Positions 12,870 to 22,494 of a DNA stretch of 64,000 nt are shown piece after piece. A program made the position numbers and the translations under genes. Source of the stretch: Candidatus Heimdallarchaeum aukensis (GTDB lineage Archaea; Asgardarchaeota; Heimdallarchaeia; Heimdallarchaeales; Heimdallarchaeaceae); assembly GCA_021513695.1 (NCBI GenBank), contig CP084166.1, positions 1,280,001-1,344,000 on the forward strand, given 5' to 3'. Under the pieces are notes generated by a model. The model made no database searches and was not told where the DNA came from. It saw only the letters and a program-made list of their open reading frames with translations. The first letter of the stretch is position 1; every line of letters starts with the position of its first letter.

Positions 12870-15800
12870 TTAAAACTGTCTTTTTCTTAAAATATAGACT
12901 AAAGACATTAAGGTTACAAGCCCAACAAATATTGATGTATAAGGTGTTTTTGTTGGCTCAGTCTCTGTTGGTTCAGTAGGAGCAGTCTTATACAGTATAT
13001 AGTCTGCATCTAGAACATTTCCAAAATCATCTACTGCATATACATGAATAATATTCTTCTCTTGTGTTAAATGATATGGATATATTCTAAATGAAGCAGA
13101 TTTTGCACCAACAGAAAGTTGAACCTCTTCACCATTTAATGTTACTGAAATGTTATTTGCTGAACTCAATTCATCTTTAACAGTAAAGTCGATATAAGCA
13201 CCAGTCATAGCAGAACCGTTTGTCCAACCTCCACTTCCTATCAGAATAGGAGGTGTGCTATCTAGAATAAATTGACCTATGTATTTATCATCAGTAGTTA
13301 ATATTGTAAAAGTATACTTTCCATCTTCTTCAAGTGTCATTGAATATGAATAAGTTCCAGTTCCAGTGCTAGTAAGAGTAACATCTGTTTTTGTTTCTGT
13401 ACCGTTTACATCAACATATGTCACAGAAGCACTTAATGATGTAGAAGCGGGTATGGCTGTAATATCAAAATCAACTTTGTTGTCTGCTCTTGTAGCATAA
13501 ACAACTACTTTATTGTCTGCAAGTAACCACTTAATAAGATTGTCTGCAAAAACAGCATTTGTAGTTCCGTCATTATAATTTTCGACAAAACCTTCTGTAT
13601 CTATAAAGAAGTTAGTTGTACAAACTACTACTCTTCCTCCGTTCTCATTCTCAAAAGCTGCTGCTGTTGCTTCTCCTTCAAATTCTAATAATTCAACAGC
13701 TTTTCCTGTTGTTGTTAAGGAGGTTCCATAATGATCAACTTTGGCTACATTTTCAGTTATTCTGTGAAGATTTTTTACATTTGCAGTAAGAGGTTCTTCA
13801 AAACTATAAAATCCTTCATCTACTTGAATGTCATAAGGCTCAATGAGTTTGTTTACCATTGTAACATTGTTTCCAATAACCAACCCATAATCTGGATCCT
13901 TTGATGCTCCAAGAAGATCAATAAACAATGATCCTCCATTCGCCACATAGTCTTGTATAGCTGTTATTTCATCTGCTGTTAATGCGCCATAAGTTTGAGC
14001 TTTAGTGGATGGAAAATTTGGATAGATGGTATTAAATGGATCAGCGAACCAAATTGCATCGTAATCAGCTAGCAATTCTGAAGTTATTTCTCCTTTAGTT
14101 ATTTCGTTTACTGCTATTCCCTTACTGTTTAGATCTTCAATAAAGTAAATATATTGGCCTAATAAATGGTCCATTCCCCAGTTTGTATGCATCTTTGCTA
14201 GTAAAATTCTCTTTTCTCCAGGTACAACTTTAACTTTTATTATTGTCTCTGCTGTAACTCCTTTAGCTGTTTCAAAAGTTATTTTTCCTTCATAATCTCC
14301 TACAGCAGCATCTAGAGGGACATCAAAGATAAGTTCATAGTTTTTGTCCCAAGGATCTGTTGCTGGGGTGGTATTTAATGTGGCAATTTGAGTAATTGTT
14401 CCTGATAAGACTGGTGTTTTATCTTCCCAAGGAGTAGAAGATACAGATTTAACATAAATAGAAGCATAGAAACCTTGGTTTATCTCTTGATAGAATGGCA
14501 CATCAAGTTCTGGAATAGCCCATAATAGAACTGGAAAACCGCTATCGTTTTTAGGAGCGGCTTTAATTAAGTCTAATGCTTTTCCTAAATCTGGAACTCC
14601 TGCACCAAATTTCAAATAATCTAATCCTTGATCATCAGCTGAAAGCATCATTGCAGTCTTAATCATACCTGCATCATAAGGAATGCTCAATCCTTTTAAG
14701 ACATCAATAAGTACAGCTGCTGCTCCAGTAATTGCAGGAGTAGACATTGAAGTTCCTTGCATAGAAACATAATCAGTAGAACTTGCGATACCACAGCTCA
14801 TAATACCCATACCAGGAGCTGCTAGATCAGGTTTTACATATCCATCAGCAGTAGGACCGACAGAACTGAAATAAGCTTGTCCTTGACCGGTTTGTTTAGT
14901 TGCAGCTACAGAAATACTTTGAGCTTCTGCCCCAGGAGACTCAACTGTATAATAGTTTGTTCCACTATTTCCAGCTGCGACTGCAACAAGAATATTATTT
15001 AGGTAAAGTTCTCTAATCATTGCTTCTTCAGCATCTTGTCCTTCAGTATCTGTTCCACCCCAACTGAGGTTTATTACATTCACAATAGTTCCATTCTCTT
15101 TTAATTCTAGAGCATACTCAAAAGCAGCAATAAAAGCCTCAGGAGGAGCAGGACTTCCTAAGCGTCCTACAAGGATTTTTGCTTCAGGAGCCATTCCTAT
15201 ATATTCAGCATTTCCTACTCCAGCTCCAGCCATAATTCCAGCTGTGTGAGTACCATGTCCATTTTCATCTTCAATACTAGGATCATTAATATCATAACCG
15301 TTTTCCTTGGTAATGAAAGACTTACTTTCTTCCATTATTCTTCCTTGGAAATCAACATGTTGAGTATTAATTCCTGAGTCAATATCATATGCGATAATAG
15401 AGCTTCCCTTATATCCTAAATCCCATAAGAAACTTACATTTAGAATATCAGCTGTCTGCTTAGTCAATTTAATTTTTTCAGCATTAGATACAAGATAGAC
15501 TGGATCTTCTGGTTGCTTAATTTGAGTATATTTAGTATCAGTTAAATCGAAAACATTCTTTACTCCGTCAATTGATTTCAAGTTATCTTTTTCACTTAAC
15601 ATGTCTTCAACAATTACCATTTTTAAATAAGGATAGACTCGTTTTACATCATGTTGAGAGACAAAATTCTCTAATGCTTCAGGATTAGAGAAGTGAATAA
15701 GATATTTTCGCATCGAATCGACAAATGGTTGTTGAATTTCAACTTCTCTGGGTTCAATTGAAACTTCAGAACTTACTTGTTCTGTATTCGCGTGAATTAT

Positions 15801-15911
15801 TGAACCAGATTGTAATAAAATAAGCAATATTGTTATTGTACTGAACACATACATAATCTTTCTGCGGTTCATAATACAAGCTTTTTTGAGATATTCATAA
15901 AGTTTACTCAA
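12870..15911 (-). CDS. secreted subtilisin-like serine protease (S8), full length, C-terminal anchor
   Basis: Signal peptide. Catalytic Asp in AYDIDSGINTQH, His in HGTHTAGIMAG, Ser in GTSMSTPAITGAAAV. Thr/Pro-rich linker followed by a C-terminal TM and RKRQF. Confidence 0.85.
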   Translation of the reverse strand: MSKLYEYLKKACIMNRRKIMYVFSTITILLILLQSGSIIHANTEQVSSEVSIEPREVEIQQPFVDSMRKYLIHFSNPEALENFVSQHDVKRVYPYLKMVIVEDMLSEKDNLKSIDGVKNVFDLTDTKYTQIKQPEDPVYLVSNAEKIKLTKQTADILNVSFLWDLGYKGSSIIAYDIDSGINTQHVDFQGRIMEESKSFITKENGYDINDPSIEDENGHGTHTAGIMAGAGVGNAEYIGMAPEAKILVGRLGSPAPPEAFIAAFEYALELKENGTIVNVINLSWGGTDTEGQDAEEAMIRELYLNNILVAVAAGNSGTNYYTVESPGAEAQSISVAATKQTGQGQAYFSSVGPTADGYVKPDLAAPGMGIMSCGIASSTDYVSMQGTSMSTPAITGAAAVLIDVLKGLSIPYDAGMIKTAMMLSADDQGLDYLKFGAGVPDLGKALDLIKAAPKNDSGFPVLLWAIPELDVPFYQEINQGFYASIYVKSVSSTPWEDKTPVLSGTITQIATLNTTPATDPWDKNYELIFDVPLDAAVGDYEGKITFETAKGVTAETIIKVKVVPGEKRILLAKMHTNWGMDHLLGQYIYFIEDLNSKGIAVNEITKGEITSELLADYDAIWFADPFNTIYPNFPSTKAQTYGALTADEITAIQDYVANGGSLFIDLLGASKDPDYGLVIGNNVTMVNKLIEPYDIQVDEGFYSFEEPLTANVKNLHRITENVAKVDHYGTSLTTTGKAVELLEFEGEATAAAFENENGGRVVVCTTNFFIDTEGFVENYNDGTTNAVFADNLIKWLLADNKVVVYATRADNKVDFDITAIPASTSLSASVTYVDVNGTETKTDVTLTSTGTGTYSYSMTLEEDGKYTFTILTTDDKYIGQFILDSTPPILIGSGGWTNGSAMTGAYIDFTVKDELSSANNISVTLNGEEVQLSVGAKSASFRIYPYHLTQEKNIIHVYAVDDFGNVLDADYILYKTAPTEPTETEPTKTPYTSIFVGLVTLMSLVYILRKRQF

Positions 15912-16087
15912 AAAAGTGCTTTTAATTATCTAAATAAATTATTAAGTAAATTATTATGCAAAAAGTCGTACCAAAATTTTAAAAAATACCACTCAAACCT
16001 AAATATTAGCAGTTAGTAACTATTGTATCTATTATTTGAGAGATTCAACTATTAAATTAACAATAAGAATTCAACAGAAGTGGAAAA

Positions 16088-21319: not shown

Positions 21320-21321
21320 GT

Positions 21322-22494
21322 ATGAGTAATGAAGTATATATAATTGGTACTGGACAAACAAAATTTGGTGAATTTTTTAATTTAAACATTGGTGATCTTG
21401 CTTCTGAAGCAGTTAACAAAGCTATTGAAAACGCGGGAATAGGAAAAGATGAGATAAGAACGCTATTTATTGGGTCAACAGTTTCTAACTCTCTTTCTCA
21501 ATCATCAATAGGCGGAATTTGTACTAGAAGTTGTAGTTTATCTTCTAACGCTTACAGGATTGAATCTGGAAATGCTAGTGGTGCAGCTGCATTCCACCAC
21601 GCTTTTTTAAGCATAAAAAGTGGGTTATATGACGTTGTTGCTGTATTAGGAATTGATAAATTATCAGATTATATCCAAAATGGAACAATTGAAAAAATTT
21701 TAGCTTCATCCATTGATTACCAATGGGAATACGAAATGGGAGCTACCCTCACAGGATTATACTCTTTTCTGACTCAAGCTCATATGGAAGAATATGGAAC
21801 AACATTAGAACAGCTAGCTTATATTCCAACGAAAAACCATCAAAATGGAGTTCTAAACCCAAAAGCTCAATATAGGTATGCTATCCCACTAGAAAAATTT
21901 CTTAATGCAAAAAGAATTGCTGACCCTATTGGAAGGTTTGATGTGGCTACACCTTGTGACGGTGCAGCAGTAGTAATATTAGCTTCTGAAAGATATATTG
22001 AAAATAAAAAACCACATTCTTACAAGGTAAAAATTCTCTCCTCATCAGCTGGTTCAGACACTTTAGCTTTGCAACACAGAGAAAAACTAACAGAGTTAAA
22101 AGCAACTAGACTGGCTGTTAACGATGCTTACAATAAAGCCAAAATTTCAGCAAATGATATTAATGTTGCAGAAGTACATGATTCACACCCAATTGGAGAG
22201 ATATTAGCAATAGAAGATCTTGGTTTGGTACCTAAAGGTGAAGGAGGAAAAGCAACTGTAGAAGGGTTGACTGCGCTAAACGGAAAGATAACTGTTAACC
22301 CAAGTGGAGGATTAAAAGCTAGGGGTGATCCTTTCGGAGCAACAGGAATTGCACAGTTAATAGAAATCGTTGAACAAATAAGAGGAAATGCTGGAAAAAG
22401 ACAAGTCGAGGATGTAAAATATGGGTTAACACAAAATGTCATGGGAACAGGGGTTATGTCCTATGTTTCTATTCTAGGGAGAGGTGATAATTAA
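21322..22494 (+). CDS. acetoacetyl-CoA thiolase (intact copy)
   Basis: Thiolase-fold motifs. The stop overlaps the start of the DUF35 gene (TAATG). Confidence 0.8.
   Translation: MSNEVYIIGTGQTKFGEFFNLNIGDLASEAVNKAIENAGIGKDEIRTLFIGSTVSNSLSQSSIGGICTRSCSLSSNAYRIESGNASGAAAFHHAFLSIKSGLYDVVAVLGIDKLSDYIQNGTIEKILASSIDYQWEYEMGATLTGLYSFLTQAHMEEYGTTLEQLAYIPTKNHQNGVLNPKAQYRYAIPLEKFLNAKRIADPIGRFDVATPCDGAAVVILASERYIENKKPHSYKVKILSSSAGSDTLALQHREKLTELKATRLAVNDAYNKAKISANDINVAEVHDSHPIGEILAIEDLGLVPKGEGGKATVEGLTALNGKITVNPSGGLKARGDPFGATGIAQLIEIVEQIRGNAGKRQVEDVKYGLTQNVMGTGVMSYVSILGRGDN

Follow-up and report, generated by a model that had tools for sequence, protein, structure and literature searches.

The window, that is, the whole 64,000-nucleotide (64-kb) stretch of DNA that was analysed, comes from the genome of Candidatus (Ca.) Heimdallarchaeum aukensis and contains genes for a subtilase, HMG-CoA synthase, thiolase and a DUF35 protein, part of which are present twice (Table 1). 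When the window was compared with itself, two units of 4185 bp were found head to tail, without a spacer and with 0 mismatches. The match runs 4 bp further to the left (TATT) and 0 bp further to the right. This pair is the sole large direct repeat within the window, and a third copy of the unit was not found. At the unit ends, no IS element, tRNA, other or long repeat, or notable hairpin was found. Judged from its sequence, chance cannot produce a perfect repeat of this length. Since there is zero divergence between the copies, the duplication is very recent. The earlier note on this DNA had claimed an exact 4185-bp tandem repeat, TATT microhomology at the junction and a very recent event, and all three were borne out by the alignment.

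Table 1. Positions in the window of the duplication unit, its junction and the genes at the locus
Feature	Position	Strand	Remarks
Full subtilase (S8), predicted to be secreted and membrane-anchored	12870..15911	-	Pfam PF00082, E = 1.5e-45; signal peptide; C-terminal anchor
TATT microhomology, left flank	14100..14103		Same 4 bases close both unit copies (18285-18288, 22470-22473)
Duplication unit copy 1, 4185 bp	14104..18288		Identical to 18289-22473
Divergent intergenic region, subtilase/HMG-CoA synthase	15912..16087		Putative promoter region; duplicated at 20097-20272
HMG-CoA synthase copy 1, 348 aa	16088..17134	+	Pfam HMG_CoA_synt_N, HMG_CoA_synt_C, ACP_syn_III_C
Proximal thiolase, 398 aa	17137..18333	+	384 native residues and 14-residue aberrant tail SFTAIPLLFRSSIK
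Truncated subtilase copy	18276..20096	-	606 aa as longest ORF; 593 aa from the ATG used by gene callers
Novel junction, ...TTTCTATT / TCGTTTAC...	18285..18292		Presence in SRR15988954 and SRR15988959 reads inferred from contig break points
Duplication unit copy 2, 4185 bp	18289..22473		With TATT, equals Logan contig L006 (4189 bp), run SRR15988954
HMG-CoA synthase copy 2, 348 aa	20273..21319	+	Identical to copy 1
Distal thiolase, 390 aa	21322..22494	+	Native end LGRGDN; PDB homologues 7yvy, 6esq
DUF35 gene (OB_ChsH2_C / zf-ChsH2, zinc ribbon), single copy	22494..22883	+	Pfam

Genes cut or copied by the duplication

The longest ORF of the full subtilase encodes 1013 aa, or 1000 aa when counted from the ATG; the orthologue in Ca. 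Heimdallarchaeum endolithica PR6 also has 1013 aa. A signal peptide is followed by the Peptidase_S8 domain (residues 177-432), a C-terminal Pro/Thr linker and, near residues 985-1008, a hydrophobic anchor. About 603 codons of the 5′ part of this gene lie in unit copy 1. In the truncated copy, residues 1-604 are those of the full protein and are followed by ET and the stop codon. The signal peptide and the S8 domain are retained, and about 410 C-terminal residues including the anchor are gone. Domain and signal analysis thus agreed with the previous description of a truncated subtilase that keeps its signal peptide and lacks the C-terminal part and anchor; the truncation stands, and only the length given there, 603 aa, has to be replaced by the values in Table 1.

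The thiolase matched 6esq_A with E = 1.8e-66. Because the PDB homologues align to thiolase residue 384-387, the replacement in the proximal copy concerns no more than the final few residues of the fold. Its aberrant end had been noticed before, with a count of 13 residues instead of 14. The DUF35 gene is not located downstream of the proximal thiolase. Instead, the end of this thiolase and the truncated subtilase ORF overlap convergently (18276-18333), and no terminator-like site was detected between the two genes. In public assemblies, no gene for the exact product of the proximal thiolase is recorded. In the distal thiolase, the TAA stop codon shares 1 base with the ATG of the DUF35 gene, and the identical overlap is present in PR6. 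Hence, as the earlier note had stated, only the distal thiolase possesses both the native C-terminus and the coupling to DUF35.

The HMG-CoA synthase, thiolase and DUF35 genes are adjacent, carry the expected domains and have the same order in PR6 and in contigs L003 and L004. Gene order and domains predict an archaeal thiolase / HMG-CoA synthase / DUF35 operon. Vögeli et al. reportedly described in 2018 that these three proteins form one complex in archaea (PDB 6esq family). The locus resembles the operon of the archaeal complex (PDB 6esq, 6et9) in the order HMG-CoA synthase-thiolase-DUF35 and in the matching Pfam domains. It is unlike that operon in having second copies of two genes out of three and a foreign 14-residue tail on one thiolase; the complex itself is predicted here.

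The window shows about 87% nucleotide identity to PR6. A comparison with sister genomes, which had been proposed as a check, gave a single-copy locus in PR6 and in two more distant Heimdall-group genomes, YT1_029 and SRP141376_co2_229. The arrangement is single-copy in all relatives compared, and a contig of the same strain (L001, run SRR15988958) is also single-copy. The ancestral state is a single copy.

Contig breaks at the repeat ends in the read sets

The strain of the window is the same as that in three SRA runs, SRR15988954, SRR15988959 and SRR15988958. Logan assemblies of such runs are de Bruijn graphs with k=31, in which each 31-mer occurs once per accession (PMC12424806). In SRR15988954, the left-flank contig L012 stops at position 14129, 30 nt past the base preceding TATT. 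Contig L006 of 4189 bp consists of TATT and the unit; it coincides exactly with the maximal repeat (14100-18288 = 18285-22473). On the right flank, contig L008 begins at 22444, 30 nt ahead of the first base after the unit, and contig L009 of SRR15988959 likewise begins at 22444. These four contigs match the window with 100% identity, also in the homopolymers, and they are therefore derived from accurate (Illumina-type) reads.

As a control, L012 and L008 (11066 bp) were followed to their far ends, at 9305 and 33509, respectively. Both ends sit exactly 30 nt inside the two copies of a 110-bp repeat. Thus, Logan contig ends mark true repeat borders. The break pattern in SRR15988954 is the one that reads with the left-flank/unit, unit/unit and unit/right-flank adjacencies would give. 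The junction itself is a 56-bp graph edge, whose presence in the reads is read from the contig ends. On the evidence of these break points, the reads almost certainly carry the novel junction, and a scaffolding artefact is ruled against. Among JGI metagenome contigs, no match to the junction was obtained.

The third run gave a different pattern. Contig L001 of SRR15988958 (12105 bp, 0 mismatches) crosses both outer borders of the locus unbroken and in single copy. Thus, in the reads of SRR15988958, the junction either is missing or occurs far less often than the native adjacencies. The library type of the three runs was assigned from error patterns. L001 contains 4 homopolymer-length errors in 12 kb, which suggests that SRR15988958 is probably one of the Nanopore runs from MDA-amplified DNA. 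If so, its graph would be noisier; a fixed duplication should nonetheless have split L001.

Artefact, circle or chromosomal duplication

Multiple displacement amplification (MDA) is known to make chimeras at short homologies, and a single-copy genome might have gained its second copy through joining by LRScaf or through chimeric Nanopore reads from MDA, with no genuine reads at the junction. The route of the assembly is consistent with this. The Ca. H. aukensis PM71 genome was assembled with metaSPAdes, scaffolded in two LRScaf rounds with Nanopore reads from MDA-amplified, then PCR-amplified DNA, and polished with pilon (Wu et al. 2022). The unbroken single copy in SRR15988958 also fits, zero divergence is what an artefact would yield, and the duplication is unmentioned by the authors of the assembly. 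However, an independent assembler split the contigs of two accurate-read runs exactly at 14129, 14100-18288 and 22444. Since the contigs break at the repeat ends, each end of the unit must have a second adjacency in the reads. According to the source paper, the accurate-read libraries were not made from MDA-amplified DNA; one DNA sample is documented for the organism (FW4588, incubation DRS71). Moreover, a scaffolder cannot add a copy within an unbroken contig, so that the Illumina graph must already have split there. The period of the repeat is 4185 bp, shorter than the shared graph edge of 4189 bp, and TATT is not doubled at the junction. Joining contigs that share the repeat edge end to end would have doubled TATT too; thus, plain concatenation of contigs does not explain the structure. 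False duplications in hybrid or scaffolded assemblies share with this locus the perfect identity of the copies, and a scaffolder and MDA-derived long reads were used here as well. They differ from it in that here, de Bruijn assemblies made independently from accurate reads show breaks exactly at the repeat ends, and in that the junction shares 4 bp and the overlap is not doubled. An assembly artefact, which the earlier note had kept as an alternative, is now very unlikely, because k=31 assemblies of two read sets break at the ends of the maximal repeat.

A real junction can also have another source. An excised circle of 4185 bp and a tandem duplication are alike in their one novel junction and in graph topology. 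If such a circle or a rare subpopulation were the origin, nearly all chromosomes would be single-copy and a minor edge would have been over-interpreted. The single-copy, unbroken contig of SRR15988958 agrees with this explanation, and the assembly route would write two copies for any junction edge that survives. Because the pipeline does so at any frequency of the edge, two copies in the assembly do not establish two copies per cell. Small circles are strongly preferred in MDA with phi29, so that the MDA-derived run should be dominated by a circle if one existed; the junction, however, was not seen in that run. In addition, the unit carries a protease fragment and two lipid-pathway genes and is without replication or integration genes. 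As for a rare variant, the Minia clean-up removes edges relative to coverage, with a threshold of about one quarter of the neighbouring coverage, and the junction edge outlasted it in two runs, which speaks against a very rare variant. We consider a circle or a rare variant improbable.

The repeat is thus likely to represent a true chromosomal event, a tandem duplication of very recent date in the Heimdallarchaeum strain that was sequenced, which is most likely Ca. H. aukensis PM71. The two accurate-read runs point to its presence in at least a sizeable share of the cells in the sequenced DNA, where it probably coexists with single-copy genomes. Since one read set (SRR15988958) assembles as a single copy, the duplication may be polymorphic and not fixed in the population. 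Tandem duplications with identical arms of 4 kb are easily lost through homologous recombination.

Origin of the duplication and selection

Of random breakpoint pairs in the window sequence, 2.7% have a total microhomology of at least 4 bp (p = 0.027). Directly upstream of both breakpoints, 13 of 23 positions match, which 0.5% of random pairs reach (p = 0.005). The duplication would have started while the DNA was being replicated or repaired: a DNA end at the 3′ terminus of the thiolase gene (...TTTCTATT) would re-pair, via TATT and this imperfect patch of similarity, with a site inside the subtilase gene 4185 bp upstream (...TTAGTTATT). Subsequent DNA synthesis would copy the interval a second time. 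Such a process would be microhomology-mediated template switching or illegitimate recombination, for which long repeats and mobile elements would not be required. It would leave intact the HMG-CoA synthase-thiolase-DUF35 operon and the subtilase gene, and would add an HMG-CoA synthase, a thiolase with its last 6 residues swapped for 14 foreign ones and an anchorless subtilase fragment.

Spontaneous RecA-independent duplications in bacteria (Salmonella, E. coli) have the same appearance: a head-to-tail repeat of a few kb with identical copies, a single new junction at which a few bp of microhomology are seen, and arbitrary breakpoints within genes. Instability and coexisting single-copy segregants are likewise expected. 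Unlike these, the present case is known from sequence alone, in an enrichment metagenome of an uncultured Asgard archaeon, and the archaeal recombination machinery is RadA, not RecA. RecA-independent microhomology duplications in bacteria have been reviewed (Andersson & Hughes 2009; Reams & Roth 2015).

The duplication might instead have been selected in the ethane/sulfate enrichment, with growth aided by extra HMG-CoA synthase and thiolase (isoprenoid lipids) or by a released, anchorless subtilase. In agreement with this, the junction is abundant enough to pass graph cleaning in two read sets, each unit copy has its own upstream intergenic region, and the proximal thiolase retains 384 of 390 residues, the swap being confined to the last few residues of its fold. 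However, the unit does not form a functional module: it leaves the partner gene, DUF35, in single copy, gives the thiolase another tail and truncates the subtilase. Both breakpoints lie inside genes and look random. The two truncated genes converge without a detected terminator-like site, so that read-through antisense transcription is likely, and there are two copies only, with no higher amplification. Over 9 months of enrichment, the share of the organism in 16S reads grew from 0.03% to 4-7%, which corresponds to only about 7-8 doublings. Because these are too few for a new mutant to reach high frequency, an origin or sweep in the enrichment is unsupported. Selected duplication-amplifications (antibiotic heteroresistance, lac) are similar in being tandem repeats of metabolic genes with their own upstream region and possibly polymorphic. 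They differ from this locus, where only two copies exist, two genes are cut by the unit and the third subunit gene (DUF35) lies outside it, the selective agent is not evident and the enrichment generations are too few for a sweep. Adaptive amplification is therefore quite unlikely. A selected and actively maintained copy-number polymorphism, in which duplication-bearing cells outgrew single-copy cells in the ethane/sulfate enrichment, is highly improbable; if true, it would be a first observation of adaptive dynamics of gene amplification in the lineage. The earlier note had proposed dosage selection on the mevalonate entry steps and an origin in enrichment or culture. Neither proposal found support: DUF35 is left out, the thiolase C-terminus is altered and the protease gene is cut, and the doublings are too few for a sweep. 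Most likely, the duplication is neutral or mildly costly and was brought in by the founders of the enrichment, with no selection for dosage.

The duplication thus appears to be a copy-number variant of an ordinary kind and of very young age, for which nothing points to a special function. It adds one case of microhomology-mediated duplication from an Asgard archaeon, which is expected and unsurprising. The two HMG-CoA synthases, the odd-tailed second thiolase and the short subtilase represent one very recent structural variant and not stable paralogues. Therefore, copy counts, pathway reconstructions and paralogue phylogenies should count one locus. In addition, per-run de Bruijn assemblies from Logan can test the read backing of a repeat in a finished genome without handling of the reads.

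The 4185-bp tandem duplication and its genes

The earlier note described an exact tandem duplication of 4185 bp with a TATT microhomology at the junction, and both observations were borne out. In the repeat comparison within the window, 14104-18288 and 18289-22473 were identical at all 4185 bases. The identity reaches 4 bases further to the left (TATT, 14100-14103 = 18285-18288) and 0 bases further to the right, and the two units meet at ...ATGTTTCTATT/TCGTTTACTGC... (the slash marks the border). The tandem duplication is confirmed as an observation. Neither a third copy of the unit nor any other large repeat was found in the 64-kb window.

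The genes were analyzed by ORF listing, Pfam scans and translation. Apart from two small corrections, the gene-level description in the earlier note held. The proximal thiolase does carry an aberrant tail; its length by translation is 14 residues, not 13. A truncated subtilase copy with a signal peptide is also present, and it comprises 606 aa from the first possible start, or 593 aa from the gene-caller ATG, instead of 603 aa. It retains the S8 domain (residues 177-432) together with the signal peptide, and lacks approximately 410 C-terminal residues, among them a Pro/Thr-rich linker and the hydrophobic anchor found at approximately residues 985-1008 of the full-length subtilase.

Features of the duplicated region and its surroundings (window positions)
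Feature	Position	Strand or orientation	Remark
MITE-like element, 110 bp	9225-9334 and 33480-33589	opposite orientations	
Eukaryote-like genes	9379-10137, 10255-11301, 31696-32856		
Divergent intergenic region, 176 bp	15912-16087 and 20097-20272		one per unit copy
Proximal thiolase	17137-18333		384 residues common with the native copy, then foreign residues SFTAIPLLFRSSIK
Truncated subtilase ORF	18276-20096	minus	
Native thiolase	21322-22494		390 aa
DUF35-type gene	22494-22883		
Homopolymer differences, L001/window	22567, 22889, 25486, 26369		

Since the divergent intergenic region lies in each copy of the unit, the native upstream sequence is retained ahead of the two HMG-CoA synthase/thiolase pairs and of the two subtilase starts. 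The TAA stop of the native thiolase gene shares one base with the ATG of the DUF35-type gene. The solved thiolase homologues 7yvy and 6esq align as far as residue 384-387. Thus, only a few residues at the end of the fold are missing from the proximal thiolase, and, judged from this alignment, the activity of this enzyme may be retained.

Gene-dosage amplification had been suggested as the meaning of the duplication. Selection for extra HMG-CoA synthase and thiolase is possible but unsupported: the DUF35 partner gene is left out of the unit, both breakpoints lie inside genes, and the proximal thiolase gene converges with and overlaps that of the truncated subtilase (18276-18333); no terminator-like site was detected between the two. 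Functionally, the duplication is an ordinary young structural variant, and users of the genome should not take the extra genes as stable paralogues.

Eukaryote-like genes also occur near the duplication: one with a faint Roc-type GTPase match, one for an actin-fold protein (ALP_N with an archaeal MreB-like C domain), and one for a small GTPase of the Arf/Gtr1/Roc family (386 aa).

Contig breaks at the unit borders in the sequencing runs

The assembly of Ca. H. aukensis PM71, the probable source genome of the window, was produced by metaSPAdes on Illumina PE150 reads, two LRScaf rounds with Nanopore reads and pilon polishing at 346x. The Nanopore libraries were prepared from MDA-amplified DNA, and a single DNA extract (FW4588), taken from a single ethane/sulfate incubation (DRS71), was the source of all data (PMC8813620). 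The duplication is not mentioned by Wu et al. 2022 (PMC8813620). In Logan, every run is assembled on its own into a de Bruijn graph (k=31), from which once-seen k-mers are dropped and which is simplified with Minia3; by design, each 31-mer appears just once per run (PMC12424806). Therefore, a perfect repeat shows as one collapsed contig, and branch points arise at the two ends of this contig only if the reads have more than one adjacency there. Logan contigs of this strain were found by exact-protein look-up in three SRA runs (SRR15988954, SRR15988958, and SRR15988959), and the library type of each run was deduced from error patterns.

The arrangement left flank-unit-unit-right flank with a common TATT predicts a left contig that ends at 14129 (30 nt past the base before TATT), a repeat contig of 4185 + 4 = 4189 bp (14100-18288), and a right contig that starts at 22444 (30 nt before the first post-unit base). 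In SRR15988954, the left contig (L012, 9305-14129) ended exactly as predicted, the repeat contig (L006) was 4189 bp and equal to both 14100-18288 and 18285-22473, and the right contig (L008, 11066 bp) began at 22444. The accessions of the left, repeat and right contigs are SRR15988954_45095, SRR15988954_18148 and SRR15988954_13391. The right contig of SRR15988959 (L009) likewise began at 22444. All four contigs were 100% identical to the window without indels. The far ends of two of them provided an internal control: L012 starts at 9305 and L008 ends at 33509, each exactly 30 nt inside a different copy of the 110-bp repeat element. Since these far ends fall at a known repeat, the contig ends mark true repeat borders. 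Furthermore, the repeat period (4185) is shorter than the common graph edge (4189). Thus, the junction is not an end-to-end join of two repeat-bearing contigs.

We conclude that accurate reads from non-MDA libraries contain the unit-to-unit junction, which is very probably genuine. The earlier note had also raised an assembly artefact. Given the breaks at the repeat ends and the short period, an artefact purely of scaffolding or of MDA chimeras is unlikely. No exact match to the aberrant 398-aa thiolase was on record in public assemblies; this null result is uninformative because de Bruijn contigs necessarily break at the junction. The 33-nt junction had no match among JGI metagenome contigs.

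The run SRR15988958 was discordant. Its contig L001 (12105 bp), from the same strain with 0 mismatches, spans both outer borders with a single unit copy. A fixed duplication should split this contig at the unit ends. L001 differs from the window only in the lengths of four homopolymers (A6/A7, T7/T8, A10/A9, and T5/T6), and all four sites lie inside L008, which fits the window without an indel. Two of the changes cause frameshifts, one in the DUF35 gene (132 aa vs 129 aa) and the other in the next-but-two ORF (259 aa vs 286 aa). The DUF35 length in the relative Ca. H. endolithica PR6 (129 aa) favours the window version at that site. Since only homopolymers differ, SRR15988958 is probably one of the Nanopore runs, and the differences look like systematic long-read error carried into the de Bruijn assembly. 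Protein predictions made on Logan contigs of this kind can contain frameshifts.

The runs are most simply reconciled if the DNA contains a mixture of single-copy and duplicated chromosomes. Recombination readily removes tandem repeats whose identical arms are 4 kb long, and a mixture of both forms is therefore expected. The duplication may be polymorphic in the population. Alternatively, the junction edge may have been lost from the noisy graph of SRR15988958. As a control on this run at a known repeat, the gene adjoining the 110-bp repeat element was looked up, and no contig of the run was returned.

Single-copy relatives and the origin of the duplication

Relatives were searched among the GTDB representative genomes (one per species). 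The window's own genome is not in this set; PR6 (CP084167) was the closest, with 94% protein identity in the thiolase, and the others were more distant. Collinear DNA of PR6 and the window is 85-87% identical over most of the aligned region and 82% in one short stretch; the ANI between PR6 and the circular PM71 genome is 88% (Wu et al. 2022, PMC8813620). By this similarity, the window most likely comes from Ca. H. aukensis; the closure primers published for that genome do not occur in it. This comparison with sister genomes, which the earlier note had proposed, revealed a single-copy organization in PR6: one subtilase (1013 aa), one HMG-CoA synthase, one thiolase (390 aa), and a DUF35 gene (129 aa), with the same 1-nt thiolase/DUF35 overlap as in the window. 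The same single-copy organization occurs in two Heimdall-group genomes that are more distant, and it is the ancestral state. In JGI metagenome contigs, a thiolase-based scan found three distant relatives (33% identity) and, apart from these, just one short contig resembling Heimdallarchaeum, with a single copy and 93% aa identity.

The native thiolase-DUF35 border is also seen in a contig of 864 bp that belongs to an unrelated assembly (ENA ERZ27247985, k141_13105); this contig is 99.1% identical to 22102-22965 (8 mismatches). Another sample therefore contains a further strain of this species that differs slightly from the present one.

Neither breakpoint has an IS element, a tRNA, a long repeat or a strong hairpin, and a check for hairpins or terminator-like sites there gave nothing notable. 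Since the window had no matches in scans for tRNAs and Rfam families, there is no integration-site or RNA-element explanation. Duplication mediated by an IS or a long repeat was rejected, as the unit has no flanking repeats. In this sequence, 2.7% of random breakpoint pairs have a total microhomology of 4 bp or more. The bases directly upstream of the two breakpoints match at 13 of 23 positions, which is seen in 0.5% of random pairs. The junction sequence fits template switching or illegitimate recombination at a short homology, and TATT would be the site at which the duplication was created. Events of this kind are the common RecA-independent way in which tandem duplications arise in bacteria.

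Selection in the enrichment or culture had been suggested. Within nine months, the share of the organism in the 16S reads increased from 0.03% to 4-7% (PMC8813620). This rise corresponds to approximately 7-8 doublings, too few for a bottle-born mutant to reach high frequency. More likely, the founding cells already had the variant.

The 110-bp element and strain divergence

The 110-bp element has 11-bp terminal inverted repeats (TAGTACTTCCG...CGGAAGTACTA), and its copy at 33480-33589 has a 7-bp target-site duplication, GACAAAT. The copy at 9225-9334 is missing from the orthologous site of PR6 and from the close wild strain L013 (JGI 3300033148, Ga0366832_1025294). At the empty site, the two flanks abut with 7 nt in common. 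Compared with window 2295-11641, L013 is 95.9% identical on the left of the MITE site and 99.1% on the right. This jump in identity suggests that the site is a recombination boundary or that the sequence is a mosaic of different strains.
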